Assembly: GCA_951406725.2 (NCBI GenBank) | Contig: OX597823.1 | Span: forward strand, 4,092,001-4,156,000 | Reading direction: 5' to 3' | Length of the DNA: 64,000 bases | DNA from: Octopus vulgaris | Taxonomy: Eukaryota | Notes under the pieces: generated by a model | What the model was told of the DNA's origin: nothing | The model's database searches: none | The model's input: only the letters and a program-made list of their open reading frames with translations | Position numbers and translations under genes: made by a program | Shown here: positions 2,398 to 39,826 of the stretch, piece after piece | How the letters are laid out: each line of letters opens with the position of its first letter | Numbering within the stretch: position 1 is the first letter of the stretch

Positions 2398-3275
2398 GTA
2401 AGTATTTTTTTCTTTATTTACATCGTAAGACTTGAATCTCTGCAGCAAAATCTATTTTCCCCATTATATTTTGTTTCACAGCTTTCCTCCACCCAGTGTT
2501 GCCATCTCACATATTATTGTTCTGTTATATTTTACTACTTTTCCTAAAAAGAAAATTGTCACATTAGTGTGGGTTTGCTAAGCCATCTTAGGGGAATCTC
2601 TTGTTAATGTGAGTTGATCTCTCTCTCTCTCCCTCTACTTTCACTTTCACAACATGCTTATGTCATACTCAATAAATGACCCCAACTTTAAACTGGTGAC
2701 AAGTATTATAATTATAGGTAGTGATTTAAATTCCTTGCACTATTTTCATAATATTATCCAGCAAGTTGTATTACAGAAAACCCCTAACCATTATGTTCAT
2801 TGAATGTTATTCCATTAATTTATGGGATGTACATTTGTAAATATAATGATGTGGATTAAGTATTTGAACATTCAAACTTGGGTGTGGTCAGTGTCTACAC
2901 ACAACCTATCCAACATTAATAGCCAGCAGAGAAGAAAATACAGCTATCAACCATACTATGTATGTATGCATGCTTACATACATACATGCACACACTCAGC
3001 TCCTTGTTATCAGAATATACACAAGTGAGAGGGTCAGAATAGCAGCCAAATGAATCTTTCAAGTGAAGTCTCAAACAAATTTGTCATTCAGGGATGTGCA
3101 TTGGTGCAATATGGCTGAATGGTTAAGAAGTTTGCATTGCAACCGTGAGGTCCCGAGTTCAGTTCTACTGCATGGCATCTTACACAAATATCATTTTCTG
3201 TAGCCTCAAGTTAACATTACATTGTGAATGACATTGGATAGATGGAAACTGTGCAGAAGCCCAGCAGATGGGTTG

Positions 3276-3498
3276 CAGTAATCCTTCGGCTATTGCAGGT
3301 GTTATGATCCAAAACCCTCTGCGATAGGTGAAAATCTGCAAAGTAGAAACAGAACTGTACTGTATATTTTTTTTAATTATTTTTATAATTTGTCTATATT
3401 TATTTTATTATAAATGCAAAACAACACCACGGAGGAATCAAGGTAAGCTTAAATAATGAACTGCGACAGGTGAACTGCAATATGGCAAGGGGTTATTG
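3276..3498. mobile_element. Tc1/mariner-pogo-like MITE
   Basis: CAGTAATCCTTCGGCTATTGCAG ... CTGCAATATGGCAAGGGGTTATTG|TA imperfect TIRs, AT-rich core. Confidence 0.55.
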
Positions 3499-4450
3499 TA
3501 TATCTGTAATTTAAAAGGTACAGCTATGTTAGACACACCCTGCACCAAACGGATTCTATCTGAGAATTACATGAAAGGTACAGGTCTGTGGAATACTCAG
3601 CCACTTGTGTTTTAATTTAGGGGCAGATAATTCAGTAGATCAAACAAGTGAATCCTCATTGTTGAGTGATGGAGAACCGTCACCCCTGTCACCATCACCA
3701 CCCCATATATGGATGTGAATTTTTGTTCATTTCTTCCTTCCAAAGAGTCTCTGCTCATTCTTTCTTCTTCTCCGTCTTCCCCTCAGAGTTGTTCTTTTTG
3801 TTTTTTTGGAACATTTCTTCTGGAACTTTCTCGTGTTGTATTTTGTTATTTTGTTTTTTGTACTGTCTGACTTCATTAACTGTTAAATCACAGCAACAGA
3901 TTCAGATATTGATGTAGAGCAGTTATTACTAGTGAAGCAGACATTTTAATGTCTGGGATACAGAAGATAAAGAGGAGGAGGGGGTTGGTGGTGGTGGAAT
4001 AATGATGGGACTAATGAGAAGGTGAAGGGGAGGAGAGGGATATTATTATTATTATTGGGTTGTGATGAGGATATAATATTAATCTACACTTTATTATTAT
4101 TATTAATAAAAAGAAAGGTGTGTTTGTGTATTTGGGAGTGTTACAGCTGTAGATGTGTACATAAGGATGGACACCTGTGTGTTTTGTTTTTAAGAATCTT
4201 CCTGATTCTCACAGCAAAATCATTTTGTCTGATGGGGAGGAGGGGGGAATAAAATAGTTAGAAATGGCATAAATAGGTACTATGCCTTTCTCTCTTATCC
4301 TTGCACTATTTTAAAATAAAATATTGTTAGTAAGTTAGTAAGCATTCACTTTACACTTACTTTTCAACCAGATGCTAAACATTATACTTTTTTTTATTAT
4401 GGTAGAGGAAGAAGGAAAAAATAGACATAAATTTGTATGTGTTAAATGTG

Positions 4451-4493
<43 letters not shown>

Positions 4494-4754
4494 GAGCAAA
4501 ACGCCCCCCCCCCCATCCAATGGACAGCGCTAAGTTGTCAAACACTTAAACCAAATTTTCTCAAAACAACTTGTCTGACCGTCCCATAGGCCTCCCCTTT
4601 GAGAAACACTGATTTAACCTAAATTTGAGACACCAGCAAAAGAAGAAATAAAGATAGACTTTTTGTCTGTTCCAAATATATATATATATATATATTTACC
4701 CACTGGAGGGGACACCAGACCATTGCAGGATTACTCAGATTTGCCATTTAAATA

Positions 4755-5190
4755 GACTGGAGCAATGTGAAACGAAGTGTTTTGCTCAAGAACACAACAC
4801 ATCAAACCAGTCCAGGAATTGAAACCACAATCTTTTGATCATGAGTCCAACACCGCTAACCACTAAGCCACACACCTTCACAATATATATATAGAAAGTG
4901 TGAAGGTGTGTGGCTCAGTGGTTCGGGTATTTGGTTCACAATCGTAAGGTTGTGAGTTTGATTCCTGCTGGCATGTTGTGTCCCCGAACAAAACATTGTT
5001 TCATTTTGCTCCAGTCCACTCAACTGGCAAAAATGAGTTCTACCTGCAAATTCAAAGAGTGTCGTGTTGCATCCTGTAATGCTGAATCTCCCTGAGGTCT
5101 ATCTTAAGAGTACAGATGTCTGTGGAATGCTCAACCACCAGCGTGATAATCTGGTTGACCAGATCAACAGAATTCTTGCCATTGTAACTG
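4755..5190. mobile_element. Two head-to-head tRNA-derived SINEs (family H); related copies near 35395-35665 (+), 44545-44770 (+), 47880-48110 (-), 50185-50300 (+)
   Basis: A-box TGGCTCAGTGGTT and B-box-like GTTTGATTCC in the + copy, then TTGTGT..TTGAGCAAAACACTT/TTGCTCCAGT body; reverse-complement copy immediately upstream. Confidence 0.7.
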
Positions 5191-6734
5191 ACAGTGTGCT
5201 CATGACAGATGGATAGAGAACTGGTTAATATTCTAAAATTATCTAAACTGAAGAAAGTACTCATAAATAGGGGTGGGGGTAATTCACATCGAAACAGAAA
5301 AATGAGACAGAAATTGAGTCCGGTACAAATGATGTAACCATGTGGGTGTACAGAGTGACTTCTCGTGTATTTTAATTCTTTTGATACCAACCCACCCATG
5401 ACAGCCCTGGCTCTATGAAACAATTACTTGCTTTGAAGTAATACAAACCATTTAGAAACTGCCTTGTGGTTCTATCATTCATTCAGACTTTGTTTTAAAG
5501 TGATCTAAATTCCGTTTAAACTTTGTTAATTTTCATTCCAAACACCAGAAAAAAGAATGAATTATTTTACTAAATTCTAATTATTTTCAAAGTTAATTCA
5601 AACAATGGTAGAGTATTTCAACAGAAATATGATAATAAAAGGGTTTCTATGAATGAAGATTTGGTAAGGGCAGTTTTGTTTCTAAGAACAAGTTGTTGAT
5701 AAATATTAGTTTGGGTTGTTTGGTGTGACCCCCTTTTTTTGTATATACAGTTTCCTTAGTAAATTCTTTTACTCTGTATGTTTTAATTTCATTTAATGTA
5801 ATCTTTCATATTACATTTACTTAAATGTTATATTCAAGCAAACTGACTGAAATTGCTGCTGGTTCTTTGATACAAATTCCGGTTTTAAACTGATTTAAAT
5901 TAAAACCTTCCATCAAAATTCCATTTTAATTTACATTGCAAACACCAGCTTAATAATGAGTTATTTTATTAAATTCTTCATTAGTTTCAAATTAATTGAA
6001 ACAAAGGTAGTGTTTTCCAGCAGAAATATGGTAACAAAAAGGTTAGATAAAAAAAAAAAAAAAAAATAGGTGGTGGTGGTAGTGGGGGTCCTAGATTTTG
6101 TAGATCCTTTTTGGTGTGCAGTAAGGAGTGAATTCCATTGGCTGTCCCCATGTATAAACAAATGTTAAGAAAAGATTAGGTTTGTTTAGTACAGTTGACA
6201 TTTTCAGCTGACTACAGTTTGGAATGCATTCATTCTTAACCCGGCTGTTTCAGGTCACAGAATTCCTCAAGAGGAAAGGGTTGGTGGCTTATTTTTAATG
6301 TAGAATGATTAGATGAGAATCCCAGCAGGGTCAACAGCAGATCTTGTAGGTGCAGCAGCTTGTTAATTTAGAACAGTCGGATGTAGTGTTTTGTGTCTGT
6401 GAAGAGCTATTGCTGTAGCTGATGGAATAGAAGTGGTACATGGATAGCTGATCTGTAAACTGGGTACAAGCGAAGAGAGAGACTGCTAGATTCATCCTCA
6501 TCCTTTTAATGGCCACATTTCTATGCTTGTGTGGGTTAGATGGAATTCCTTGAGGCAGATTTCCCAATGCTATTCCTTATCACCTGCCCTCACTTATTTC
6601 CAAGCAAGATGATATTTCTCATGGTCAGACATGTTCCTATGGAAGGCTGGAAATGAACGTCACTCATTTACAACTATTGTGTGATGCAAAGACGAAGAAA
6701 TGTGCACTCACATGTGTGTGTGCACACGAGAATG

Positions 6735-6736
<2 letters not shown>

Positions 6737-6804
<68 letters not shown>
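6737..6804. repeat. (CA)n microsatellite
   Basis: Perfect dinucleotide run. Confidence 0.95.
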
Positions 6805-6806
<2 letters not shown>

Positions 6807-6997
6807 GGTTTCTCTCTGATTCTACCAAATCTACTTTGGTAGTTGGTTGGGGCTTTAGTAGAAGACACTTTGCCCAATGTGCCACAGAGTGAGATTGAAC
6901 CTGAAACTGTGTGGTTGACAAGCAAACTTCTTACCTCACAGAGCCACACCTGAACCTGTACTATTTAAGAATAATAAATTATTAGTGAATAATTTTT

Positions 6998-7235
6998 CAC
7001 AGGCATGGCCTGAGGTAAGAAGCTTGCTTCAAAACCACATGGTCCTGGGTTCAGTCTTACTGCATGGCATCTTGGGCAAGTGTCTTCTACTATAGCCTCA
7101 GGCCAACCAAAGCCTTGTGAGTGGATTTGGTAGATGGAAACTGAAAGAAGCCCGTTGTGTGTGTGTGTGTATATATATATATATACATACAACCATGCTA
7201 GCACAGAAAATGGATGTTAAACGATGATGATGATG

Positions 7236-7271
<36 letters not shown>

Positions 7272-7458
7272 TTGTCCCCACCACCATCACTTGACAACAA
7301 ATGCTGGTGTGTTTATGTCCCCGTAACATAGCGGTTCAGCAAAAGAGACCGATAGAATAAGTACTAGGCTTACAAAGAATGAGTCCTCAGGTCGATTTGC
7401 TCAACTAAAGGCGGTGCTCCAGCATGGCCACATTCAAATGACTGAAACAAGTAAAAGA
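6998..7458 (+). mobile_element. tRNA-derived SINE family A, full length
   Basis: Head GGCATGGCC..GGTAAGAAGCTTGC..GGGTTCAGTC, CTTGGGCAAGTG core, internal TG/TA microsatellite, tail GACTGAAACAAGTAAAAGA; partial copies near 1620, 3105, 6805 (-), 21390 (-), 31720 (-), 54345 (-), 59380. Confidence 0.85.
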
Positions 7459-8253
7459 ATTACATGTTGTATCTTACGGTGATATAAGTTTGAAGAATTA
7501 TTCACGTGAAGCAACTTTCCAAAATGCTCTGCAAACTATTTTGAATCTAGGAAAGAGCCTTGGCAAGTTTTCCGTTGTAGCCATCAAGCTATTTCCAGTT
7601 ACATATCTGTTATATTGTTTTATTGTCCCCCCCCCCCAAATGGAGGCCAGATTCTTGTCTGTGGTAGAGTAATCCATGGTTGTGTGAGCATGTGTCTACA
7701 GACGCATAGATTAATATCGAATATTTTAGTAAACCAAGTTCAATGTGGAATGGTGTGTACAATGTAGGTAATGGAAACATTGGAATAAAAGAGAATTTTG
7801 GAATCATATAGCATATTGGATGACTTAGAAAGAATTGAGGAGGATGATGAGGAGGAGGGATGGGTTGTGGGGGGGGGATGGCAGTGACAAAATGAAGAAA
7901 GAATTTATTTGGATTGTAGTAGTGCTCTGTAAGGCAGCGTAAAAATTTATCAAAAGAGGTAGACCTTGAAATGCTCAGAATTTCAGGGTCTGGAAGTATC
8001 CCTGGGGAGAGAATATTAGGGAGGGATATGGGGTGATTTTTGAAGCCCTTTCAAATCCCGGTGCCTGATTGAAGAAGCGTTAAACAGATGGTAGCAATGG
8101 AAATGGCGGTGGGATGTAGGTGAGCGTTGTGGCAACTGTAACATGAAAACAGAAAAGCTGAACTTCCATAAGATTGTTTGTTTCTACATGTTGTAGGGGG
8201 GGGGCGATGGAAGAAAATCTTAGATCACTTTCAACTTCTAAATATCAAGAACT

Positions 8254-8291
<38 letters not shown>

Positions 8292-9885
8292 TCTCCCTCT
8301 GTTTAAATACTCTCACACACACACACATTGAGAGAAGGTGAAATAACTGGTTTACCTGGCCAGAAGCCAAGCTACAAGTTAAACCAGAATGTATTGGGCT
8401 GTATGGATGGATGGACGTATGTATGTATGTTTGTATGTGCACACACACACACACACACATTGTCGTAGGAAGGTATCTGTATTGTCAAATACACAGAAGT
8501 GTCGTGAGAGTAGATTACCAAACAAAAAGTACCATGAGGACTAGGAGTTACTTAGAGAGTTGGCTGTAAAGTTTAGGGGGTAAATAATGGGCAAAACAGT
8601 TCAGGGTATGACAAAGTTGCAAGAACCTCTGCTAGAATCATTAAAATGGTAAAGTCCTTTTGACCACCGTTGAAGTGGTAGTACTGTTGGTTAAGTACCA
8701 GCTTTCATACTCGAGATGGTGCACTGAAAATAATTTTTAATTTATTAGAATTATAACTTTGATGAGAAGTTATGTTAATGAATATTATTCTCAGAGCATG
8801 CAAGGGAGAGAATTTCTGTAATTTCAATCAGGTAAAATAGAAAAGGAAAAAATATGCAGAGTGGAGAGGTAGGAAAGTGAGCTTGATTTTTGTCACCAGT
8901 GATGTCAATTCAGGTTATGTTTCAACCTTATTAAACCTCTTCAGTGAAGCATAATCCCTTCAGTGGCCTCCAAACTCATTGATTAATGTTCTACAAGAGC
9001 TCAACTTGCTGTTCTATATCTTATTGTCCAACTGAGAACAAGGAGGTAAAATGTTGATAAATGAATCCCAAGGATTGTCTACACCAAGTGTGAATGTGCT
9101 AAACTTGACTAGGAATTCTTTGCATGAAGATACTCACCTCATCACCACTAATTTCATCTCTTCCGGACTCCACCTCAATGAGCTTTATCTTCTCTTCCAA
9201 AATGTAACCAAGCAGCCCCTCTCTACAGCAACAAACCTGTTCTGCTCTGACCCCTTGTTTTCATACTTTAATCCTTCATCTCCTAGCATAAAGCTACCTC
9301 TGTTAGGTTTTATAGTCTTGTAAGCTGCATGGCGATCACACTAGTGCTGGTGACACGGAAAAGCCCCCAGTGCATTCTGTAAAGTATTTGGCATTAGGAA
9401 GAGCATCCTGATGTGGAAACCATGTCTGAGCAGACACCGGAGCATAATGCAGTCCTTGAACCCATAGGATCCAGTCAGACTTTCCAACTCATGCCAGCAT
9501 GGGAAATGGATGCTAAATGATGGTGATGATAATGCAGGTGTTCAACAAGGCTTAGTCCTTAGCTCCTCATCTTCATTGTAACCTTTGAAACCTTTATTAA
9601 GGACAAGGTATTTGTGACACTGTTCTCATTACTGCTGGAATTTGAACTGAAAGACACGCAGTTACTCTAAGAAATATCCTTAACCCAATAGTCTCAAAAC
9701 ATAACAGTAATGTCCAAGTAAAAAGAAAAAGTTCAAGGAATTCTCAATGCAGATGTAGTTACTGGGTAGAATTAAAGCAGGTGTCTCAAGCATACTGATG
9801 AAGAATAAAAGACTGAATGTACTAAATTCTCCTTTGATAACTAAAATCCTGATCAATCCAGTTCTGAAGTTGATAGACTGCTTGT

Positions 9886-10095
9886 TTAACCCTTTCATTA
9901 CCACATTTCTGTTGAAAATTCACTGCTTTTGTTTCAGTAAATTTTGAAAATAATAAAGAATGTGGTAAAAACTATTGTTAGACTGATGTTTTGGAACATA
10001 AATTAAGATGAAACTTTGATGGAAAATTTTAAAACAAGAAGTTTGTATCTTAGAACTAAGGGTGGTCTTGGGTAGGTTGGTATCAAAAGGGTTAA
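9886..10095. mobile_element. TTAA-flanked MITE family D (piggyBac-like termini); many copies, e.g. 21604-21821, 27325-27540, 30550-30770, 46138-46350, 49013-49242, 52648-52876, 59815-60029
   Basis: TTAA|CCCTTT ... AAAGGG|TTAA termini, about 210-230 bp AT-rich conserved body. Confidence 0.75.
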
Positions 10096-11498
10096 GTACT
10101 GTTAATTACATTTCATAATTAGCACAGCTACTGGTACTATTAATAGCAGTTCAGGGATGGATAGGGAAGTTTAAAGATGTGCTTTCCCGGTTGGTTACTT
10201 AGGGATTCTTTCTCCAAATATATGTCATATTATGCCTCTTGTGTAAAATATATTATCCCGTAAGTCAGTGGAGTTTGGTAAGTAAAGAGAATGGGCAACC
10301 GTAGAACAATTGGTTTTAATGAAAATAAACTTAAATTAGGTTATGGTATCATATCACCTGGTTGGACCTCATTTGTTGCAAAAACTGATTTGTTCAACAG
10401 AGTTGGTTCCACTGATATAGTCTGGTCATTCAGTTGGTTACATAAGCTGGGCTGAAGAAGTTAGTGTGTGTTGGTCATTAGTGAGCTCGTAAGGCAAAGG
10501 TTGGCCCATAGAACACTTTAATAGTAGAAATGGTAGAAAGACAGTCTGGACTGTGATGGAACAAATAAAATGATGCTTTGTTGCAGATTTAGATATTTTT
10601 GATGGTTTTGTCAGATCTTCCAACAGTGACAAATGTTGATATTAAGCTAATCCTCTCTTTTAACCTGATAGGAATCAAGATAATTTATATTTGAGAGTAT
10701 TTCTAAGAATGTAAAATCTAAACTCCAGACTTCACAGTTTCTCGTTTTCTTTTACATTTCCATTAATTCTTTTTCTTTGGTTTTGCATTTCTTCTTCAAA
10801 TCTTTTTCTTCTTCACGCCGTTATTTAATCCTCTTCTCTTTCGGTAAATGATACTAGCTACGCCTTATTCCCTCTTTCTCTCTCTCTATGAAAATCTTCC
10901 TCGTCTTTGTCACTTATTTATTTATAAACCTTTAACTTGGTGCAAGATTCCACCGTACTTTGATTAGTTTTCTTACCATTCCTATGTTGTTCTGCTGAAA
11001 ACCAATATCTTGGAGTTGATGTGATGTGACGGGTAGTTAACGTCTAACTAATAACATCAACAACAAGTCTAGCATTTTTGTCTGTCTGTAAATTATCACC
11101 TCCTGCTTCTCTGTCTCTCTCTCTCCATCTCCATCTCTTTGTACGTATCACTCTACCTGTCTTTCTTTCAAGTTCTGTTTACTGCAAAAGAAAAAAAGTA
11201 TATCACCTTCTTACACAACTTTCATTGCGGATGAATTGCCAGTGGGGTCAGTAGCTGGTTGCTTGTTTGTTCCTCACCAAAATAGCCCATTCTATATTTT
11301 GTTTTCCCTCCACCTGTAGCACCAAAGTGTTGCAGGTAGTTGGTCGGGTTCTGTTCTACTACTCCTATCCAAAATTTCTTCAGATTTATATATCAACATG
11401 TTGACGTATTGTTATCTTTGAAAAGAAGTGTGTGTGAGAGAAGGGGAAAAAAAAAAAAGAAAAGGCACTACATTGGAATTATACTTATTTATTAAAAT

Positions 11499-11558
11499 AT
11501 GGCTTTTTCAAAGGCAAAATCTTGCTTGGTTGCACAACTCCAGCTTCATGAGAAACAG
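11499..11558 (+). CDS. Candidate alternative first coding exon (20 aa)
   Basis: aaaatATGG context; MAFSKAKSCLVAQLQLHEKQ ending at CAG|GTAGGG, phase 0; preceded by about 700 bp of largely repeat-free sequence. Confidence 0.42.
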
Positions 11559-13040: not shown

Positions 13041-13178
13041 ACTCATAGACATGCTCACATACACCTATACATACATCAGATAGAAATATCCTCAGTGGTG
13101 ATAAGACTTTTCTGTAATGAACATGTAACTTGGTCGTTTGTACAATTATATTTGATACTACTTGAATGTTTCAGCAGC

Positions 13179-13214
<36 letters not shown>

Positions 13215-13216
<2 letters not shown>

Positions 13217-16645: not shown

Positions 16646-18180
16646 CCTTTTGCCAGCAGTGGTGGAGTATATTTTTGTGTTAGACATCAATAGTGTTGTG
16701 TGTGTAATATGCCTGTCCCATTACATCTATGTATTTACTCAATGCAAAAACCATCATGTTGAGCCGATTAACTGCAGCATTTGTTTGGAGATAAATGTCT
16801 CCTCTGGATGTTCTGTGTTAATGATGACATGGACATTCTCTCCAGACAAAACACCTCAGTTAATTTGCCCTCTCGTGATGTGTTGTCATTAACTATGACA
16901 CAAATGGCTATCTTAATTCAAAGCTATTTATGTTTCAGCCAACAGATTTTTATACGATACTTATTACGCTTGTGGCTGAGCTAGCAATGATGTATGTTGT
17001 ATATATATATATTGAATTACACAATAGTTATATAGCTTGTCTGCGTGTGTGCATACATGTGTGTGTGTATATTGTCTTAGGAAGGGGTTGCGTGTTATAT
17101 AGGAGTTGTGCTCTTGTGTGCAAGTGTTGTATAACACAGATTATTTTTATGTCGTCAAGGCAGAGCCATGATGAACTTTGTGAACAGCCATAACATTTTT
17201 ATGTGAGAATTATGTTGATTGATTCTGGAAACCATCCTCTCCCAACAAATCGATTCTTGTTGCTTACAATATTTTCATCAGATGATTCTACTCCAGACAT
17301 AATTCCTCCCTCCAGGATCAATAAAATAGTACCAGTTATATACTCGGGTTGATATTAACACCCTCCTCCTCCTAAAATTGCTGGCATTGTGCCAAAGTAG
17401 AACGAATGACTTCTTCCTTTATTCTCTCACTTGACTTTCTACAAATGTTTTATTTCAAGTATCTTGGGTGTACTTCACGTGTTCTGTGCTTTCATTTAAT
17501 CGTTAGCAACTGAGGTGATGATGATGATGGTGAGGAGGCAGAGGAGGCAATTGTTGTCTACGTCTGTTTGTTTGCTATTATCTATTATTATTATTAATTT
17601 CTTTTTCTATGCTGCTTTCGGGGATGGGGGCTAATTCATTTCTTTTTTTTTTTTTTTCCATGTGTATATTATGTAAGTTGGATTATAATATATTGAGGAA
17701 ATTCTGTACAGAATGTGTGTTATCTGGGCTGCTGTATTTTCGATGGGTGAGGTGGCGGGTAGGTAAGCTATGTAGCAAACCTTGGGGCATCATCATCATC
17801 ATCATCATTATTACTTTTATTATTATTATTATTATTATTATTGAGGCAGTGAGCTGACAGAATTGTTAGCATGCTGAGCAAAAAACTTAGCAACATTTCG
17901 TCCATTGTTACGTTCTGAGTTCAAATTCCACCGTGGTCAATTTTGCCTTTCATCCTTTCAGGTTCGATAAAATAAGTACCAGTTACATACTGGGGTTGTT
18001 GTAATCGACTGTCTCCCTCTCCCCCAAAATTCAGGCCTTGTGCCTACAGTAGAAAGGATTATTATTGTTATAGTATAGATGTTCTTGTTTATTTCTCTTC
18101 GGAGCAATACCCAGTGTACCAGCTATGATGAGTGTTGTCTCACTGTTATCCCCCATGTGAGAGAGGTTTATTTCAATCCC

Positions 18181-25945: not shown

Positions 25946-26476
25946 CTTTTTCTTCTTATTTATTATTATTGAAGGTTTATACACAGGGTGGATGTTGTTC
26001 ATAATATTGTAGTACTAATAGTAGTAGCAGTAGTTTGAGAGAAAGAGAGAGGTTGTGTGTGTGTGTGTGTCTGCATGCAGTATGTTGATTTTAAGGGTTA
26101 CAGTGGTACCATCGTATCTTCATCATGGAATGATTTAACCTGATATCCTTGTGATGAAATCTGGAACAAGCTGGATAATAAACAGCAGCAAAGATGCTGA
26201 TGTAAAGTAAAGAAAGCATCTGTTTTTACTTGTCAAAGACAGGACTTGATGGGTGGCATGAACGTTTAGATTACCCTGATCACTCCCACCTATTTTATTT
26301 TGTTTTACGTTGTTGCCGATCAGTTTGGAACAACTAAAGGCTTTTAAGGCAACAAGCTTTTCTACAGGACTAACAACAGAGGAGCTGTTAAGAAAACCTG
26401 ACAGCAAAACAGCTTTTTTGATGGACCAAGACAATACCAGAACAGCTTTAAACTGAATTCGTCGTCTGATTTATTG

Positions 26477-26578
26477 ATGGTGGCTGAAGAATGGATTTAT
26501 TTTATTTATCAGTTGTTTAAGACTTTCTCAGGGGAAGAAGTCCAGGGCCTCCGAGACTTGTGGAATGAAGTGGGAAAG
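26477..26578 (+). CDS. Candidate alternative first coding exon (34 aa)
   Basis: MVAEEWIYFIYQLFKTFSGEEVQGLRDLWNEVGK ending at AAG|GTATTG (weaker donor), phase 0, in a unique-sequence island. Confidence 0.3.
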
Positions 26579-26655
26579 GTATTGTTAAACCAGAGACCTG
26601 ATTGTTTTGTGATTCTACTCAAGGCACCCGACAGCCTGATGGTATTCTTAAAACT

Positions 26656-26881
26656 GGGCGAGCTGGCAGAAACGTTAGCACGCCGAGCAAAATGCGTAGC
26701 TGTATTTCATCTGCTGTTACGTTCTGAGTTCAAATTCCTCTGAGGTCGACTTTGCTTTTCATCCTTTCAGGGTCGATAAATTAAGTACCAGTTACGAATG
26801 GGGTTGATGTAATCGACTTAATCCGTTTGTCTGCCCTTGTTTGTCCTCTCTGTTTAGCCCCTTGTGGGTAGTAAAGAAATA
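26656..26881 (+). mobile_element. SINE family B (Deu/Nin-domain-like) with 18-bp target-site duplication
   Basis: GGCGAGCTGGCAGAA head, GAGTTCAAATTCC B-box, TTTCATCCTTTCAGGGTCGATAAATTAAGTACCAG (resembles the Deu/Nin SINE domain); flanked by GGTATTCTTAAAACTGGG at 26641-26658 and 26882-26899. Confidence 0.88.
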
Positions 26882-29800
26882 GGTATTCTTAAAACTGGGT
26901 AATACATTAAGTGTACTAGTCAAAGAATGGCAATGTTCTTTCTTGTAGAATTCAATGCAGTTTCCACTTACCAAATTTCTTCCCAAGACATGTGTCAGTG
27001 TGTGACTTTGGTCCTGTGTAATGAGATTGAACCTCAAATCACAGAGTTGCTAAGTAAATTTCTTAACCACACAACCATGCATCTATGTCTGACCATTTGT
27101 CCGTCCATCCATCCATCCGTCTGTCTGTCTATCATTCATTCAAGCTATCATGTGGTGTATCCATGTATCATCTTTCTAACTACTTGCCTACACACATGCA
27201 CATACATTGCCATGTCTGAAAAATGGAGAAATTTGATTTATATTCTGAGGGTGGTGCAGTGATTTAGGTTCTGTCTGCTATATCACATAAAGGGGTGGGA
27301 TATTAGGAAGATATCACTGATCTTAACCATTTGTTATTGTTTTTCTGTTTAAATACACTGCTTTTATTTCAGTTAATTTACAAAATAATGAAGAATTAGC
27401 TTCATCATTATCAAACTGGCGTTTGGAACATGAAATTTTGATGGAAGGTTTTCATGTAAATCTCTTTGAAACTAGGCATTTATCTCATAGAAGTGGTGGG
27501 TGGGGTGGCATGTTAGGCAGGTTGGTATCAAAAGAGTTAAGACCTGTATGAAAGTGTAAATGTGTTGAGAGAAAAAATACACGTAAGAGGCATCAGATGT
27601 GTGTAAGAGAGAAGACTGTGCTGGTGTGGTCATGTGCTGAGTATGGATGAAGACAGCTGCATAAAGAATGTGGAGGGGAATCCATGGGAGAGGAAGATGT
27701 GGGACAAAATAGGAGAAAGATTATGTTTAGATGTTGAGTTTCACAGAGGAGATGAGAAAGGATTGAGATAATTAGCAATTTTCTATGTTTACAAAGACCT
27801 GTTCAGCTAAGTAAAATAGAGGACACGGAGGCTTGTCCCTTCTGTCCATGCCCCATTCTCCACCCGAATTCACCACTCACTGTATTCCCTTGCACACAAT
27901 GTCCCTCTATTAAATCTCTTCCCCACAACATAACCCCTGACCCTAACACCAAGGTTCAAAATGGTACCAAATTCTATCAGTAGACAAACTGTATGAAGGT
28001 TCTTTGATGTGATCTGTCCTGTGGCTCTCATCCGTACAGAAATAGTGGATTAGCCCTTTTTGTATGGTTTAATCTTGTGAAAAATATCCATTCCTTTTAA
28101 TCTCCAAGGAATCTTTGAGCAAGAAAGAAAAAAAGATGTCTTGTTGGAGAAGATAATATTCATGAATCTTTATATGGATTAAATTTTGTTCAACGATACA
28201 ACCCAGAAAAAGAAACAAATAAAATTATTGGCTATTGTTTGTGCGTAATGAGAATTTTCTGTGGTTGGTCAGTGATGCACCCATTTGCATTGGAATATGA
28301 AACAAACAAGAAGAAATTATTATTATTATTATTATTTAGAGTTCTTCTAAACTTATTGAATAGATACAAAGAGATTAATTAGACAGGTCCTACTGCCTTG
28401 TGAGATGCATAAAGCTGTGTGTGTGTGTAAAATCGTTGTGTTAGTTTAGTGAAGAGTAAAATACTGTCATGAAACCAGGATCTTCTACACTTGAAAATGT
28501 CAGTATTAGTCTGGAATCCAATGGTTTTGGTATCCCCCAGAACTTGGATTGAGTGCTTCATTTGGAATACCTATCTTTATACCCTACCATGACCTTATAT
28601 AAAAGAACACAAATAGAGTTGTGTTCTTCTTTCATGCCTATGCCACACTTGGAGCCAACCCCAAGTCGGATCTATGGTCTATATTGGATTTGGTACCTAT
28701 GTATCTACATACCTGCAGTACTCTACCGACAGGTGACACCTAATGGTTGTTTTACTTTACTGTGATCTCAGTGTTGTTATGGTACCCAGCTAGTCCTGGC
28801 ATCCTATGAGTTGGTGTTCCTAGATTCTAATGAACCCTGAAACATATATGGGTGTCTGTCTGTGTGTGTATAAAACTATAAGCTTTTACAAGAGAAAGGT
28901 TGACTGTAACTTCCAGCTTTCAGTTTGCTTTCCTTTGTCACAGTGTGACAAAGGCAAGCAAGACAAAACTTCAAAGTCACTCTCAGTATTTTCCCTGTAA
29001 TGCTTTAATAAATAGAGACACAACTAAAAAACATTAAATAACCCTTCAGTTTAATGTTAAATTGATTTTATGTATATATGGCTTGACCTAGAAACAAACA
29101 TTACTTTGTGTGTATAAAATCTTTTACTTGTTTCACTCATTTGACTCCGGCCATGCTGGGGAATACACACATATCTGTGTGTGCCCTGTGTTTTTCTCTC
29201 TCTGGTATTACGCAGATTTACCTCCAAATAGGTTTAACCTGATAATTTTTCTTCAGGTGATCCAGTGTTCTACTTATTACTACTAAAACATTGAAGTGGG
29301 TGATGGGGGGGGGGGGGAACACTTTAGTCTCCTCTGAACTTTATTTATTTTTCTTAGTAGTGGTGGTGGTAGTGGGGGGAGGGCAGAAGATATCAAAGGT
29401 AAATTCATAGCATCATCATCATCATCATCATTGCTTTCACGGTTTTATTACTTATACTATTACTTCTTGTGTTATCGCAACTATTCCCAACACTATTGTC
29501 ACCACAAACAAAAAGCTTCTTATTTTGTCCCCTGTTAGCTGTGATCAACCAAGCTTGTCATCAAAGGTGTTCCGGCCTTGACCATCCTTCCTTTTTCGCA
29601 ACCATTGTTTAATGGTCATTATTAGATCATCATTGCACCTCCACATTTTTTTTAAGCCAATCGGATGTGATTTGAGAAGACTCGGTTGCTAGTTCTACCA
29701 GATCAAACACTTACAAAAAGGCTTCTTCATTACACTTGTAGTTAATTGGCATATCAATTAGTGCTACAGATAAACTTTATAATTCTCGAAGAAAAAAGAA

Positions 29801-31844
29801 AACTGGTCTCAGATCAAGAACGAAAGGTTTAGGGTTGTTGTCAAATAAAATTCCAGTTGAAAGGTTTGTCCTGATTTCACCCAACTGGTTTATCTTAACC
29901 AATATTTCCAGGCCATTTGAATTCATTTGCTCCACTAATAATCTTGAGAACATTTTCAACACACAGTTTCATTCACTATCCTTTTACAGATATAAAGGCT
30001 TTCTCTATATGTAATAGAAAAGAAAACCCCACAGTATTTGCATTAATTGCTAACCTTTTGACACCAACCCACCTAAAACTGTCCCTCATTCTTTGATACA
30101 AACTTCTTGTTTTAAAATTACCTAAATTAGAATTACCAAAATTTCTTGTTAATTTATGTTTGAAACACTTGTTTAATGACAGTGTTTTTAGTAAATTAAT
30201 TTCAAAGTTAATTGAAACAAAGGTAGTATATTTCAGCAGAAATATGGTAACAAAGGTTTTCTATAATCATAATAAAAAATGGTGATTTGGAGGCGAAATA
30301 CATGAGATGCTGTATTGCATTGTTCAAATGTTGCCATTCACTTTATTGTATGTTAGTCAAGGTACATTATTTTCCCTGATTTTTGTCAGCCTTCTTTATG
30401 ATTGAACAGATAGAATTAGAAAAAGCCATCCAACTGTGAATCATTTGTTTCTATAATTTATATCAATGAGGAAAGAGAATTGGCTTTAGAATTTCAAATC
30501 CCTCTTGGTCAGTCATAGTATTAGTGAGGCTTGGATAGTTAGTCGATCGTTAACCCTTTTGTTACCGTGTCCCTGTTTAAATATATTTTGTTTCATTTAA
30601 GTTTGAAAATAATGAAGAATTGGAATCAAATAACTTTGTCCCTGTTCAGCTGATATTTGGAACATAAATTAATATGGAACTTGATGGGAAGTTTTAAATT
30701 TAGATCCCTTTTCAACATTTTGTATCATAGAACCAAGGGAGGAAGTCCCAGGCAGTTGGTATCAGAAATTGAATGATGCCATCTGGAATTTAGTGTGGTT
30801 AAGTAAAAAGTGACTGGATGGTCATGGCTGGGATACCTTTGAACATAAGTCTCCTCAACCCTTTTGCTATCATGTTTATGTTGAAATGCATTATTGCCTT
30901 CGTTTCAATTTGGAAATTAATGAAGAATTTAGTAAAAATAACTCTGCCATTATTAAGGTGATATTTGAAGCATAAACTGAAAAGGAATTTTAATGGAAGG
31001 TATTGAGCATCAAAGCTCTAATTAGAAATAATTATACAATGAGGAGGAATGTGGTAGCAAATCGGCTGAGTTGGCAGAACATCAGCTGCATTGTCTTGCA
31101 GTATTTATTCCGGCTTCCTGTACTCTGTGTTTAAATCTGACAAGGACAACTTTGCCTTCTTTCCATTTGAGGCTGATAAATAAACCAATCCAGGTCGATG
31201 GATTGGTTCCAATATTAGAGTGCCAGGGAAGGGCTTTGCTTATCTGTTTCAACTCTGTGCTTTCTGAGTTCAGATTCTACCAAGATGCTTATAACCAAGT
31301 TAAATCAATCACCTCACCATGACAAGAGCCCCACTTCTAACCCTTAATTAGCCTAGCTTTGGCAGTCAGGCCTGAAATTTGCATGGATGCCTGAGTCTTT
31401 GTCTGACAAAGGGATCAAAAACTGACTGACTGAAGCTACAACATTACTGCAGTGACAATATTTTAACTATCATCATCTTAACATCCCCATTTCCATGGCT
31501 CAGATGGAATTTTCTCAAGGCAGATTTTTTACAGCCAGATGCTCTTCTTGTCACCAGTTCTCACCTGTTTCCAGGTAAGCTAATATTTCCTCATGACCAG
31601 ACATATTTTCACAGAGCATTGAAAACAAATGACACCACTTGTATGGTGGTGGCACTTGCTAACAACTCATGTGGTGTCCAGTCAGACGCACGCACGCTCT
31701 CACACACACACATACAACTGGCTTCTTTCAGTTTCCATCTGCTAAATCCATTCACAGGATTTCGGTTGACCTGAGGCTGTAGTAGATGACACTTGTCCAA
31801 GTTGCCTTTTAATGGGATTGAACTTAAAACCTTGTGGCACAAGC

Positions 31845-33050
31845 TCAGCAATTTGAGGGGAAGGATTAAGTCTGTGTCATCAACTCCATTTCTTAATTGG
31901 TGATTATTTTATTGACCCTGAAAGGTTGTATGGTAAAGTTCACCTCAGCAGGTTTGAACCTGGAATGCAAAGCCAGAAGAAATGCTGTTAGACATTTTGT
32001 CAGGTTTCAAATTTTGCCACAAGGTCAGCCATTTTGGGGAAGGGGATAAGTCGATTATATCGACCCCAATGTTTCACTGGTGCTTAATTTATTGGCCCCA
32101 AAAAGGTGAAAGGCAAAGTTGACCTCGGCAGAATTTGAACTCAAAATGTGAAGACAGACAAAATACCGCTAAGCATTTCACCTGGTGTGCTAACGATTCT
32201 ACCAGCTCGCCACCTTTATGGTTTCGAATTTTGCCACAAGGCAAAATAATGGGATGATCAGGTTATAGGTTTGTTCATTATAGGTTTGTTCAGCAAGAGC
32301 TGACACGGGGCTAAACAACAAGACATTGGCCTAGCATCAGTTATTGATGCTGGGCAAGGTGGACTTTCTTTCTCTTTGTAGACAACTCTTGGATGATTCA
32401 CAGCAATCTGGAGAAAGGAGACGAGTTGATTACATCGACCCCTCCCCTCCCCCTCACGTATTCAACTGATACTTGATTTATCAACTTGAGCAGAATTTGA
32501 ACTCATAACGTAGTGGCAGATGAAATACTGCTAAGCATTTTGTCCAGCACGCTAACTATTCTGCCAGTCTGCTGCCATAATAATAATAACAATAATAATA
32601 ATGTTTTTTTTATTTAGGCCCAAAGCCGATGATTTTGAAAGTAGAGTGTAGTAGACAAATCCATTAACCCCAGTACTTGAATTTATTTTATCAGCCCCTG
32701 GGAGATGAAAGTTGACCTTGGCAAGATTTGAACTTGGAAAGTAGAAAATAATTTTTCCTGGTACGCTAACATTTCTGCTAGCTCAACTCTAATAATAATA
32801 ATAGTAATAATCATAATAATAATTTAAAATTTTGACCCAAGGGCAGCAATTTTGAGAGAGGGTGGTAGGGGGCAAGTCAAATACATCACCCTTAGTGCTT
32901 AACTGCTGCAATTAAGTATCAAAAGAATGAAAGACAAAATCAACCCTGGTGACATTTGAATGTAAAAAGTGAGAAGAAATACTACTAAACATTTTGTCCG
33001 ATGGGTTAAAGATTCTGCCTGTTTACAACCTAATATTGACAATAATAATA
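31845..33050 (-). mobile_element. Cluster of about 5 SINE family B copies (one interrupted by a templated insertion)
   Basis: Repeated family B units, several separated by (AAT)n. Confidence 0.78.
32242..32400 (-). repeat. Inverted copy of 18225-18394
   Basis: Reverse complement matches 18225-18354 (2 substitutions, one 3-nt indel) and 18370-18394. Confidence 0.92.
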
Positions 33051-34446
33051 ATAATGATAATAATATATTAAGTAATCATGTGATCAATTTGGTATGGCGT
33101 CAGTTTTTTGGCTGGGAAGTTTAGTGTTCTCTGTTCTATCCTTCAGTCTGAGCTGTATCTCGCAACCAACTTTAGCTGTCAACAATGCAAGTAAGACTGG
33201 TAGGAAAATAATTTGGTTGCAGGGTACCAAAATAATTGGCAATTATCGTTGTCCAGTTTATAGCTTTGTATTGTCCAGCTCAGATCTTTTTTTTCCTTTT
33301 CATTACATGTGAACAAATGATCAAGTGAATGAGTGAATGAATGAATGAGGGAATGAGTGAATGAATGAATGGAGAAGGAATGTATTTTTTTTCTTTTTTT
33401 TTTTTTTTGCTTCCTGAAACAGAAATGAAAATTTTAATTAGAATATGATAATTATCAATCAGTATATCAGCATGGATGTTTTCATTGTCGAGTTGGTTGT
33501 TGTGCAATAAGTCAAAACTTCAGGAAATTTCGCACCGGCCACTTTAATTGAGCCTGTTGAGTTGTGTTTATTCCACGAGTGGTGAGTAGCTGTAACAACG
33601 AATGTGTAAGCCACCCCTTATAGGTAGGCGGCCACAAATAACCAGATAGCTGCATCACTGCCATATTGATTAAGCTATTGACGTTAAATGTCTCTCTTCT
33701 TTCACTCTCTCTCTCTCTCTCTCTTTGTCTCTCTTTGTCTCTCTATCTCTGTCTCTGTTAATCTCCGGTGAATAGATTTCTGGTGATTGCATGAAGAGAG
33801 AAAAACAAATATATCAACTACGTAATACAATGTTAAGATCTACCCAGTGTAGACTAATATAGACTAATATATAGATATTCATATATTTATATTTATTTTA
33901 CAACAGCCGGTCTGCTCGGCTATTACACACATCTATGAATCTACTGTTTCTTTGTCAATCTTTCTTTCTTTCCTTCCTATAGCTTCTAGAAATATCTATA
34001 ATCTTCAAGTGAAAGTGAATCTTCAATATTTATTTTAGAATTTCTGAAATATTTATTGTTTCTTCCTTTTCTTTAACTGTCTTGAAAATGAAAACAAAAC
34101 TGTCCTTTACAAGTGATTTTAAAAATATTATTGGAAAAAAACCAATCGCTGTTCTATAATAGTGATTGACTGGTAATGTTATGTATTTTCTCTCCGTTAT
34201 CGCCAATGTTTAACATCAGTTTCTTCCACAAAATATTTTTCCATGTCTGTTGAATATCAACATTTCCAAAACCTGTCAGTTATGCATTTTTTCCTAGTTG
34301 AATATTTATTTATATATTTGAAACACATATGGGATAAGAAAATGTATTTTGGTTAATTTGCATAACACATGCAATTTTATTTTTTTAAATCTTCTTTTAA
34401 TCAATCAATTTAAAACAAAATAAAACAAAAAAACAAACAATAACAA

Positions 34447-34776
34447 ATGTCCAGATCATCTTTCTGGAAAGTCCTTAGACAAGCTCGGTCTCTTAGTCCA
34501 AGACCAATCTCCAAAGCTGCTTCTAAAACTGAAGAAACTAAAGAATCTGATTCTGATAACACTACTAATTATATTCCGATATGGAGATCCAACCATTTGG
34601 ACCAATGTCACCTCTTGCCTTCTTCACAAACACTGGGACCTTTACACCGTTGTGATGAGTGTGGATCTCTTAGTTATTGTGATCATAAAATGTGCCAAAT
34701 TAGTCTGACAATAAAAGTCAACCCCTGGAAGACTTTACAGCCATATGTTACCTTTAAAAGTTGCTGCCAGAGTTTG
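34447..34776 (+). CDS. Candidate alternative first coding exon (110 aa) for a CH1-less spectraplakin isoform
   Basis: Non-repetitive ATG ORF MSRSSFWKVLRQ...KSCCQSL ending at TTG|GTAAGA after exactly 110 codons (phase 0, same as CH2 exon acceptor); AT-rich UTR-like sequence upstream. Confidence 0.62.
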
Positions 34777-34871
34777 GTAAGAAAATAATTTCATTCTGTT
34801 CTATTATTATCATTCTGTCTCTTTCCTCTCCCCACTTTCTCTCTCCCCCACTCTGTCTGTCTGTGTCTGTC

Positions 34872-34902
<31 letters not shown>

Positions 34903-36647
34903 GTATTCCAATATTATGTCACAGCAACTGGCTCCACCCCCCCGCCCCATAAAATGCTGCTCTACCCTAGACCTCCTCTACTTCACCAGTTCTATTTTCA
35001 CTACAACATCAACCCCCTCCTACCCCCTCTCCTGTCTCCCCCCCCTGCATCTTTCCAGTCTCTTACCACCTACACTCCTTGCATCCTTCATCCTAATCCC
35101 TGTTTAATCCTTCTTCCCTACGGCTTCATCCATCTGTTGGCAACACAACCTCCCCATACCTTAACTTAATCGAACATTGACAACACATAACCCTAGCTAG
35201 CCATAGATGTTCTGAGTTCAAACTTCACCAAGGGGGACTCTACATTTCATTCTCCCAGGTTGCAGTGGTGTTGGGGGGTGAAATCTAACAATAGCATTAA
35301 CAATTAACATGCTCTAGTAATTGCCATGGAAAAAGCAAAATGACCCTTACCCCCACCAGCTGCTTTGGATGTGACCTTGTGCTGCCACCTTGTGAGGTTT
35401 AGGGTATTCCGTTCAATACCCAGTGGTGTATTCTTTCCTTGAGCAAGATACTTTCTTCCACGTTGCTCCAGTTCACTCAGCTGGCAAAAATACATTGTAG
35501 CTGTAATTCGAAAGGATCTGTGTCATGCTGAATCTCCTTGAGAACTACGTTAAGGGTCCACGGGGCTGTGGAATGTTCGGCCATTTGCATGTTAATTTCA
35601 CAAGCAGGCTGTTCCGCTAAACGGATCAGCTGGAACACTAGTCTCGTAGTCACTGACTGTGCCAGTTTTTTGATAACCTTGTATGTCTGTTATTAAATCC
35701 TTATTTACTTTCACCTGAGCAGTTAGCCAGCCTTGGTGGAATTTTGTTTCGCTTTCTCTTTCTCTGCCCCGCCCCCTCTCATTCTCAACTTACATTGATT
35801 AAACACAAACGCTCACATTATTGGGCCATCACAAAAAAAAAGAAGGAAAGAAAATCCCCAGCTGTCTGAGCCAACTGGTAACATGTGCATATTTGTGTGG
35901 TTGTGTGTGTGTGTGTGTCGTCGTCATTTAATCATGATTATCGTTTAACATCTGTTTTCCATGCTGGCATGGGTTGGACGGTTCAGCAGGGACTGGCAAA
36001 TCAAAAGGTTTCACCTTAGCTGTGTTTGTATTTATGCATATCTGTGCTTGTGTATGTGTCCCAGATCAAATGTAGCCGCAGTTCATATTTCATCATCATC
36101 ATCATTTGACGTCTGTTTTCCATGGTAGCATGGGTTGGACAGTTTGACTGGTGTCTGGGAAGCCAGGAGGCTGCACCAGGCTCCAGTCTGATCTGGCAGT
36201 GTTTCTACAGCTGGATGCCCTTCCTAACGCCAACTACTCCAAGAGTGTAGTGGGTGCTTTTTATGTGCCACCGGCACAGGGGCCAGAGGAGGCTGGCAAC
36301 GACCTCGATCGTCAAGGCGGCGCTGGCATTGCCCACGTTCGGATGGTGCTTTTTATGTGCCACCGGTATATAACATCTAACATCATGACTGCCACTTTAG
36401 GCAAGAAAAGGCATAAACATCACTACTTCCCCTGTGTACCCCTGTACATCTCAGTTTCAAAATAACTTTAGTTTTTGCCATTGTCACATTACATTTAAGA
36501 GGATTACTACATTACTGTGAGGGGGTGGGGTGAGGGGCTTGTGTTTTATTATTTATTTTATTATTTTACTTTATTTTTTTTTCAATTGTTATATTTGAGG
36601 ATGGTCATATTTTGCCAATTAAACACACACACACAATACATTTAGCC

Positions 36648-36679
<32 letters not shown>

Positions 36680-36876
36680 CATTATTATATCAAAGCTCTT
36701 TCTTTGTGCGTCCTGTGACATCTTCTGCGTCTCCTCTTGTTCTGCTTATTCCATTCTCAACCCACAATTTCACACCAATTGCGAAACAAATACATATTTT
36801 TTGTTTGTTTGTTCCTCTAAGCATGAAACTTAAAAGTTCTCATGAAGCTGAGTGATGGGGGGTGGTGTAAATAGTT

Positions 36877-37300
36877 CACCACCACCACCAGCATTTAACA
36901 GCAATGCCAGGAAAGAGAAGCCAGCACCACCACCACCACCACCCTGTCATCAACACCATCATCATTGTTGTCATTGCAATTGCCTTTGTCTTCATCCTTT
37001 ACAACCACTTCCACCACTTCTACAAGCAGCATCACTAACAAGCATCATAAGCATTTCATCATCGTCCTTTGTGATTGCCACCACCATCACCACCACCACC
37101 ACCACATTGTCCATCATTAACAGAACCATCGTTGCCATTTCATCCTCATTATCATCAGCATCACTGGTAGAAACATCATTATCATTTCATCACTAAACAT
37201 TACCACCACCACCACCACCACCACCACCGTAGTTATCATTCCCAGCATCAGCACTATCAGAAATGTCCTGACCATTTCACCCCCATCATCATCATCATCA
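36877..37300. repeat. (CAC/CAT)n low-complexity tract; similar tract at 14537-14740
   Basis: Degenerate trinucleotide repeats. Confidence 0.8.
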
Positions 37301-37594
37301 TATTTTTCCCATACTCAGATGTGTTTGATGAGGAAAATTATCAAACATGTTTTAAGTTAATTTCAACCACTTTTCTTTTTTTTTATATTTCTGGGTGGGA
37401 TTTTATTTTTAACCTTTTATTTCTTTTTTCTTTCAACTATTTTTGATTTATCTTACGTGACATTAGAGTTCAGGTTTAAAGTTCGGTGTTTCTTGTTTGT
37501 AATTTTTATATATATATTTTAAAATCTGGTGTCCTGTTGGAGGAGTTCCAAATTAGAACTAATATATATATACATACACTATGTATACACACAC

Positions 37595-37629
<35 letters not shown>

Positions 37630-39826
37630 CTACACACACACAATCACACATTGTTCACTGAGCTTTATATATATACACACAATCACACATATATTGTTTA
37701 TTGAGCTTTATATATATAAATAAGGTATTAGATGATGTAAGCCATTTAGTATAAGGTCATGAGAAAGAGACTGCGTAAAGCATTCCAGGATCGATGAAAT
37801 AAAGTACCAGCCAAATACTGGAAAGGGTGTTGTTTATGTTATCAACTTGACACCTCCCCCTCAAATTGAGGACCTTTCTGCCTAAATTCGACACAGTTTT
37901 CATCTGGTGATGGGTGTTGGTGGTTGGTCGCATTTGTTTTTTGCTTTATTTTTAAAGGTTTTCCATTTATATTTTTGCCTCCTGTTCTACATAAAAACTA
38001 CGATTAACTATATCACGTTCGTTAGTCCAAGGCCTTAAGTTAATCTTGTAATTTTAGAAATAAGAAGATGAGTTGATTTTTATAAAGGTTAATGAATACG
38101 AGATGTCTGAGTAAATGATGTAGATGGTTTTGATTTGCATAACAACCGTCTGTCTGTGTATTGAGACATACATTTAGGCTGACGTACTATCGTAGTCTGC
38201 TTTCTTTGTGCTGTTGATAACACAAGGGATTGGATTGTAAATAAAGGAACGGAATTGAAAGACTAACATGTAGTTTGCTAGCATTAAAGTTTTAAGTTTC
38301 AAATCTTGCCACACTTGAATTGACCTTTAATACATTTGGGTATAATAAAGAAGTTACTTTAGTAGCATATTCAGACTTTTGTTACCATATTTCTGTTATT
38401 AATTCACTTTGTTTCAGTTAATTTTGAAAGTAACAGAGAATGGAATAAAATAATTTTCCATTATTAAGCTGGTGAAGCACGACGTTTGAACATTGGTCCA
38501 CACTGAGGTGATGACAGGTGACCCCTTGGGAGAAATGCTGTGCTTGAGAAGACCTAGCAAGCCAAGTGAGACCATAACTGTGGCCTATGCCAGTGCAGCA
38601 TAACCAACCCATTTAAGAGTACTCTTCAATCATTGGGCAATAAACTGCACTTGCAAAAACCTCTTGAGGCAAGTGAAGTCATCATTGTGGTCAATGACAG
38701 TACCGCATGATTGGCACCCATGCCAGTGGCACGTGGAAAGCACCATTCAAGCATGGTTGATGCTAGTATTGCCTGACTGGTCCTGTGCTGGTGGCACGTA
38801 AAAAGCATCATTCAAGCATGATTGTTGCCAGTGCCGCCTGACTGGCTCTTGTGCCGGTGGCACTTAAAAAGCTGAATTTACCAATTACAAACCAACAAAA
38901 TTCTCTGTAGTGCTTTTTACTGATGTGAATTTTCTACCACTGACGGTACCTACACCGAGTAAAGCAGACCTGATTTAAGTTCCTTGTCTATGGCACCATT
39001 TCTCAACAATGGAAACTTTACAATTGTTTAAATCAGTTGACGAATCTAGAGAATATTAATAAATGATTAAATAAGATCTTCATGAACCGAGGAGGTGAGG
39101 TGGGGGGGTAATAAATTTGATAATATATTTTTTTCTTTTTTTACTAACCACCAGCATGTTTAGATGTTTTATTACAAAGAGTTTTTATTACTGGTCAGTT
39201 TGACCAGAGTGATTGCAACTTCACAAGAATCTTTGTTGCAATGCCAGTATAACTTCCTTGTAATTTCACACACACACAATCATACCCATGCGTGCACCAT
39301 GTTATTTTAGGCTTGTGGGTCAAGTGCTTAATAGCACATAAGTTTTATAAGTTTTAAATTATGAAATCAAATCTGGTTGTGACTTACTTTACTTTTTATC
39401 ACTCTGTTATAATTAAAATAATTATTAATTTTCTAGAGCCATTTCATTTTACTGGACTTTTCAAGCTTACAGAAGCTAGCCTTCTGTCACTGAATAATAA
39501 TTTGTTAATATTTCTTTCGTCACCAGAACTTGTTAAATCCAACATTAATGAACATTACAGCAACTTTTCTGTTCTCTATAAAGTCTAAGCCTTGTTCTTA
39601 CAAGTCGGTATTTTCCTTATTCTGGCCTTTGTCCCCTCTTCTATTTCATAAAGGAAGCTAATTAATCCAATATAAAAATGTTGTTATGTTTGCAGAGGGG
39701 ATAGAGTAACATTGCTGTTTTCCTTCAAACAGTAGAGAGGCTTTAAAATAGCAGAGACAGAGAATTGCTTTAATATTCTACATCAATGAAATAACCTCAA
39801 TATTTTTCTCTTTTTCTTTTCTCTAG

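Follow-up and report, generated by a model that had tools for sequence, protein, structure and literature searches.

The 64,000-nucleotide (nt) stretch of Octopus vulgaris DNA analysed here (assembly GCA_951406725.2, contig OX597823.1, positions 4,092,001 to 4,156,000 of the forward strand; hereafter the window, numbered from its first letter) carries exons of what is most likely a spectraplakin gene (Shot/MACF1/DST), in which a 37,429-bp intron separates the CH1 and CH2 halves of the actin-binding domain. Within this intron lies a real exon, 34447-34776, which contigs from two species join in frame to the CH2 exon. We consider it likely that the intron holds this one leader exon, opening a CH1-less isoform, together with one 45-nt cassette (11514-11558), and that a third candidate arose by chance. 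Flies and mammals are known to have a CH2-only spectraplakin isoform; cephalopods would thereby be added, on the strength of a junction seen in two species.

The leader exon and its junction with CH2

The features of the putative CH1-less transcript are as follows:
34447-34776, plus strand: coding part of the CH1-replacing exon, a leader of 110 amino acids (aa), donor TTG/GTAAGA (contigs X1, X6 and X12)
34380-34446, plus strand: A-rich 5' untranslated part of the leader exon, with an in-frame TAA at 34441-34443 (words of X1-X4)
34777-39826, plus strand: 5,050-nt GT-AG intron of the CH1-less transcript (contig junction)
39827-39993, plus strand: common exon encoding the CH1-CH2 linker and the first half of CH2 (Pfam PF00307, E 1.9e-9)

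Contigs of four of the 24 listed sequencing runs (X1, X6, X12 and X16) were aligned over 34440-34815; the RNA status of the runs is a guess, none of the 24 being on record as RNA. Positions 34440-34776 are spanned by the contigs of X1 (from organism A in study P1) and X6 (from organism B in study P3). Coverage falls to zero past the predicted donor, and both contigs end with 30 unaligned letters which are those of 39827-39856, in X6 with two synonymous changes. The in-frame junction from 34776 to 39827 is present, then, in two of the four runs aligned, representing two species and two studies. The locus is single in the genome (next own-genome match E 0.55), and because an exact 5,050-nt GT-AG intron has been removed from it in two species, the join is best read as spliced mRNA. 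A first-pass annotation of this DNA had anticipated a CH1-replacing N-terminal module spliced to CH2, and with it junctions other than that from 2397 to 39827; the contigs of X1 and X6 bear out both expectations. That the two contigs halt 30 nt into the CH2 exon would fit an assembly branch at which other exons also join. The assembly k was presumably 31.

Coverage elsewhere is less complete. X12 (organism C) contributes a contig over no more than 34486-34701. Twelve contig sets, each of 46-191 million letters and drawn in all from five studies of three organisms, contain part of the leader exon; three of these sets were aligned. Sampled words of 34380-34790 were recovered in X1-X4 at 37 of 39 (a share of 0.95), and the X1 contig reaches 108 nt 5' of 34440; if it is colinear, its end is near 34332. 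In X19-X24, another six runs of organism A, the exon's words are all but missing, which is no evidence of tissue specificity.

As in C-type and isoform-3 transcripts, an isoform-specific exon is in frame with the CH2 exon and CH1 is skipped. The TAA lies just 5' of the ATG and within the contigs; an in-frame fusion to CH1 is therefore excluded, and the exon is likely the start of an isoform that lacks CH1 and carries a 110-aa leader. Transcription would begin inside the intron, at an internal promoter, to give the leader exon transcript, and the leader would then be translated and fused to CH2 via 39827.

Several observations weigh against this reading. The contigs show neither transcript start nor strand, and their RNA status is guessed; at X16, intended as a DNA control, nothing aligned. 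Two short upstream open reading frames (ORFs; ATG at 34342 and 34369) precede the leader ATG. Furthermore, position 33982 has a strong acceptor-like site with 95% pyrimidine, and the leader exon could therefore be internal. In the extreme form of this alternative, 34447-34776 would be the 3' end of a large internal exon running from 33982 and spliced from the CH1 exon, its stops leading to nonsense decay or a CH1-only fragment as a means of dosage control. The 12 ATGs between 33770 and 34446 would suit such an exon, as would an overall ratio of non-synonymous to synonymous change (dN/dS) near 1 in the leader. However, the 110-codon frame is open in three species, its one indel is in frame, random DNA rarely has ORFs of that length ending at a donor, and other bilaterians use this architecture to encode protein. 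We regard the internal-exon explanation as highly improbable.

A CT repeat precedes the acceptor-like site (window 33691-33990), and CT repeats also occur about 350-400 nt 5' of 11499. They may point to promoters or to an internal exon of larger size.

The leader peptide and its counterparts in other animals

The leader exon's product is laid out in three parts: residues 1-27 are basic and amphipathic, residues 28-45 acidic, and residues 64-110 rich in Cys and His. The first part (window 34447-34527) has a net charge of +7, is acid-free, and includes an Arg-x-Leu-Ser motif; we take it to resemble a mitochondrial presequence or a helix for anionic membranes. The leader opens with Met-Ser, so it lacks the Met-Gly myristoylation start of the DST-a3 type, a feature that is specific to DST and not general to C-type leaders. 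The third part contains one further feature:
34648-34695, plus strand: CxxCGx4CxHxxC cluster (C69, C72, C78, H80, C83), a possible zinc-binding module

The leader may retarget the protein through its basic amphipathic start and this cluster. The Cys/His ligands show no amino-acid change in X6 or X12, and neither contig carries a stop or a frameshift in the leader; their common 6-nt deletion counts as one indel. The leader as a whole tells against such a role, its sequence differences being about neutral, with no purifying signal: the 13 listed differences comprise about ten non-synonymous and three synonymous changes, against 243 and 69 sites, respectively (X12 has two more differences outside these 13). 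None of the ten non-synonymous changes falls in codons 61-85, which span the cluster (P 0.02-0.10, depending on boundaries picked post hoc).

Database searches likewise provided no counterpart. No Pfam match to the leader rose above chance (the best, PF17032, E 0.43, is below the cut-off), and the PDB gave no match at E 10. The leader was in none of the database proteins searched (62 candidates of 194-2000 aa, proteins of 60-193 aa lying outside the search), a further point against a conserved peptide. Exact look-ups of four window ORFs did not find it in the protein collections, and 80 metagenome loci compared with it held no homologue (best E 0.62).

These results raise the question as to whether the peptide matters at all. 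The promoter and junction may be real and the leader neutral filler, the point of the isoform being the loss of CH1 alone. The dN/dS near 1, the sub-threshold PF17032 match and the empty homologue searches all favor this, and the Shot leaders are themselves described as devoid of informative motifs in the available part of PMC9320987. On the other hand, codons 61-85 escaped all ten non-synonymous changes, and CxxCGx4C, found once in the Octopus leader, occurs twice in a CH1-less snail leader that joins at the same junction. This sharing was reached by 24 of 100,000 shuffles (0 in 399,920 random residues), with the motif chosen post hoc, and is a lead only. Neutral filler is a possible explanation, although we rate it as rather unlikely.

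The snail protein, Biomphalaria glabrata UniRef100_A0A2C9K839, comes from another mollusc, lacks CH1, joins at ISD and has a Cys-rich leader like that of Octopus. In contrast, its leader is 317 aa long rather than 110 aa, the last ligand is C where Octopus has H, and the protein is an automated model. The alignment of the two leaders is weak (score 46, reached by 47 of 2000 shuffles). Within the Biomphalaria leader, blastp pointed to a stretch resembling CH (E 0.064), which was rejected because a CH2 profile does not support it.

CH1-less leaders at the same residue were found in database proteins of the snail Biomphalaria, the annelid Paralvinella, the horseshoe crab Limulus, the insects Daktulosphaira and Chironomus, the amphioxus Branchiostoma and the quail Coturnix; judged from these sequences, the design is pan-bilaterian. 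The closest functional precedents are those named in the first-pass annotation, and both hold as CH2-only proteins: Shot-C (PMC9320987, available part) and MACF1a3 (PMC4914211, available part). Drosophila Shot-PC resembles the Octopus form in its internal start, its isoform-specific lead, its single CH2 and its retention of the remaining protein (available portions of 10.1101/122010 and PMC9320987), and in the same portion of PMC9320987 it is said to bind actin negligibly without CH1. Unlike in sequence, the Octopus leader has no similarity to the insect CH1-less leaders compared, a set that leaves the fly C* leader itself outside. MACF1a3 and DST isoform 3 (BPAG1a3) likewise place a unique N-terminus on the second half of the actin-binding domain, as far as the available text of PMC4914211 and PMC3352950 describes them, and the vertebrate MGN-type leaders are joined at the same ISD/ISE residue. 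Octopus differs in lacking Met-Gly and in having the basic amphipathic start and internal Cys/His cluster. By analogy with Shot-C and MACF1a3, loss of CH1 would deprive the protein of most of its F-actin binding but leave the plakin-spectrin-GAR body in place. Another study, PMC9145010, uses canonical isoforms only in its available part.

Since CH1-less leaders occur across Bilateria and are already known at the CH1-CH2 junction, the surprise is modest; the putative linker cassette and the CxxCGx4C motif, weakly shared with the snail leader, would be less ordinary. A literature search on octopus spectraplakin matched no paper (subscription papers and supplements lay outside its scope), and among the related paper titles listed there was neither a study of cephalopod isoforms nor a cassette in the CH1-CH2 linker.

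The probable spectraplakin gene, its long intron and the annotated cassette

The exons on either side of the intron and the cassette within it are listed here:
2305-2397, plus strand: last CH1-coding exon (IKLVNIR...HFQ), donor CAA/GTAAGT
2398-39826, plus strand: 37,429-bp phase-0 GT-AG intron, from CH1 to the linker/CH2 exon in the skip form
11514-11558, plus strand: 45-nt in-frame cassette micro-exon (15 aa) between CH1 and linker (O. bimaculoides RefSeq models)
11499-11513, plus strand: in-frame ATG and four codons 5' of the cassette acceptor, relevant only if this is also a first exon

The gene is most likely a spectraplakin because its exons are co-linear with mollusc MACF1-like proteins (13 exons from 39827 onward in a tblastn exon map) and because 156 kb downstream, in the same orientation, there is a pair of GAS2/GAR exons that may belong to it. 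Plectin and MACF1 are its best relatives among solved structures, and a plakin domain comes after the tandem CH1-CH2. At the CH2 exon, identity with RefSeq proteins of Octopus bimaculoides is 100%. The long intron was confirmed as annotated, by its coordinates and splice sites: it starts at CAA/GTAAGT, ends at CTCTAG/ATA after a pure pyrimidine tract, and splits the protein in phase 0 at HFQ/ISD, residues that are joined directly in O. bimaculoides RefSeq isoforms X4, X8 and X9. The accompanying statement that the other introns measure 0.2-8 kb applies to the 12 downstream in the window (about 0.2-8 kb each in the exon map) but not to the gene as a whole, in which a longer intron, of 74.6 kb, separates CH1 exon 2 from exon 3 upstream of the window (46.8 and 27.7 kb around a micro-exon).

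The cassette measures 45 nt, has phase-0 boundaries on both sides, and pairs a weak acceptor (58% pyrimidine) with a strong donor, CAG/GTAGGG. All 15 of its residues stand between HFQ and ISD in six of nine O. bimaculoides RefSeq isoforms (X1, X2, X3, X5, X6 and X7), and are absent from X4, X8, X9 and an older model. At the level of annotation it is, then, a short, frame-preserving exon with both inclusion and skipping forms. All six models containing it keep CH1; on the evidence seen, 11499-11558 appears to be an internal cassette, not a first exon. Against this stands the nature of the support, which is automated RefSeq models of another species. Automated RefSeq isoforms normally rest on junction reads. 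Among 100 stored CH1+CH2 proteins (isoforms counted separately), 92 have no insert at the CH1-linker boundary; the others are the six Octopus models and two cases of apparent intron read-through.

AlphaFold prolongs the last CH1 helix through the insert (132-160 vs 132-145), although the insert has a predicted local distance difference test (pLDDT) score below 50. The pair of models with and without the insert has a predicted template modelling score of 0.39 each, and, to the detriment of any structural argument, the no-insert control also misses closed plectin (root-mean-square deviation 8.9 vs 9.4 Å). Together with the low pLDDT, this means that the models are silent on CH1-CH2 openness. Linker structure does tune affinity, according to the available part of PMC6938246, in which a linker swap shifted the dissociation constant of utrophin from 13.8 to 0.7 µM; an effect of the cassette on actin affinity is therefore plausible, in either direction. 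The cassette form would keep CH1, lengthen the hinge and alter CH1-CH2 openness, and hence actin affinity. It lends itself naturally to testing whether actin affinity is set by the CH1-CH2 linker.

Plectin 2alpha and 3alpha are comparable as short optional exons within an actin-binding domain, but they sit between exons 2/3 and 3/4 (both points from the available part of PMC8468861), whereas the Octopus cassette is at the CH1-linker boundary. A likeness to 2alpha is also seen in another Octopus exon, the 48-nt CH1-internal micro-exon at C10:4054284-4054331, upstream of the window within the 74.6-kb intron: it has two acceptors, giving 16 or 6 aa, and its 6-aa form, HWRFSQ, aligns with HWR in 1MB8. 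All three of its forms are present in O. bimaculoides models. On this numbering the window itself occupies C10:4092001-4156000.

The acceptor at 39827 has at least three upstream partners, namely the CH1 exon and the cassette (annotation) and the leader exon (contigs), and since this phase-0 acceptor is shared, the modules are interchangeable. A more ambitious version would make the seam a molluscan three-way switch between plain CH1-CH2, a form with a 15-residue helical spacer that would push the two domains apart and raise actin affinity, and a CH1-less form led by a zinc module; we hold this to be unlikely. In this version the zinc module would be old and mollusc-wide, set behind a basic amphipathic membrane- or mitochondria-targeting helix, and the switch would be one undescribed in flies and mammals.

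Two alternative leader exons 5' of CH1, at C10:4005309 and 4007150, encode A- and B-type N-termini. The O. bimaculoides RefSeq 'plectin' models (P0001, P0002, P0020-P0027) stop just past the second CH2 exon via intron read-in, whereas in the window the gene runs on into the plakin domain; an assembly break in that annotation is probable. No full-length Octopus spectraplakin was found among 37 candidates of 2747-8742 aa, the annotation of other Octopus releases being outside the scope.

Chance reading frames and the third candidate

The first-pass annotation had described the intron as an array of alternative promoters on the basis of three ORFs in unique-sequence islands. The three (11499-11558, 26477-26578 and 34447-34776) do exist, are stop-free, and each reach a GT in phase 0. 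The array itself is not supported: the contigs show the junction to 39827 for one of the three, 11514-11558 is annotated as internal, and 26477-26578 is at chance level. For these comparisons, donors were scored with a simple matrix built from approximate metazoan frequencies, and chance rates were taken from 20 random 10-kb stretches of the same genome, scaled to the 37.4-kb intron strand.

ATG-to-phase-0-GT ORFs of at least 15 aa with a donor score of at least 2 number 11 on the plus and 12 on the minus strand of the intron. At the score of the 26578 donor, 18.5 ORFs of at least 20 aa are expected per intron strand and 25 were seen; at that of the 11558 donor, 0.56 are expected and one was seen. 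ORFs of at least 100 aa are expected at 0.28 per intron strand, with one seen, and at the score of the 34776 donor there were none in 400 kb. As a class, such ORFs are no commoner than chance, the 110-aa ORF alone being unusual, and each candidate therefore requires separate evidence. The claim of unique islands stands insofar as each of the three has a single full-length match in the genome, but the intron holds 21 unmasked islands of at least 350 bp and its repeat content is ordinary (about 41% vs 40% in the downstream part of the window, 400-kb library); by themselves, therefore, unique islands are no exon marker.

The third candidate illustrates this:
26477-26578, plus strand: unsupported candidate with a weak donor, AAG/GTATTG

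Its donor scores 0.4, at which about 10.6 ORFs of at least 34 aa are expected per intron strand, and 26545-26605 (its 3' third plus donor) has 78-84% matches at two other loci. Next to it, at about 26640-26900, comes a high-copy repeat. As a first exon the candidate has no support, given its chance-level frequency, weak donor and repeat-like fragment (contigs were not compared at the 26578 donor), and it is probably a chance ORF.

Could there nevertheless be at least three promoters, with 11499-11558 a hybrid first/cassette exon and 26477-26578 a rare first exon? The in-frame ATG at 11499 carries an A at -3 and, like 34447, follows an A-rich stretch with CT repeats further 5'; in human, widespread hybrid first/internal exons are reported in the available portions of 10.1101/2021.05.27.446076 and PMC11797052; the gene has two more leaders 5' of CH1; and 26100-26540 is single-copy. 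However, none of the models or contigs examined begins at 11499, all six peptide-bearing models keep CH1, and the 26578 donor has the score and the repeated fragment just described. An array of this kind is quite unlikely, and the single leader exon with one cassette is preferred.

Other ORFs of the intron gave little. The strongest donor consensus after a short ATG ORF (31539-31574) was rejected as a repeat with 4038 first-look genomic candidates, and six other ORFs had no Pfam match below E 0.1. Further unmasked ATG-to-donor ORFs (8772-8831, 17609-17758, 28589-28732 and 29303-29398) have donor scores of 3.0-5.5, equal to or better than the 26578 donor, and occur at chance frequency. The element at 26640-26900 is like a short interspersed nuclear element and is flanked by direct repeats of about 18 bp, a likely target-site duplication. 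Finally, on the minus strand at 222-611, the window contains a 130-aa open frame, with no Pfam match below E 0.1, which we take to resemble the C-terminal endonuclease end of a retrotransposon without long terminal repeats (non-LTR).

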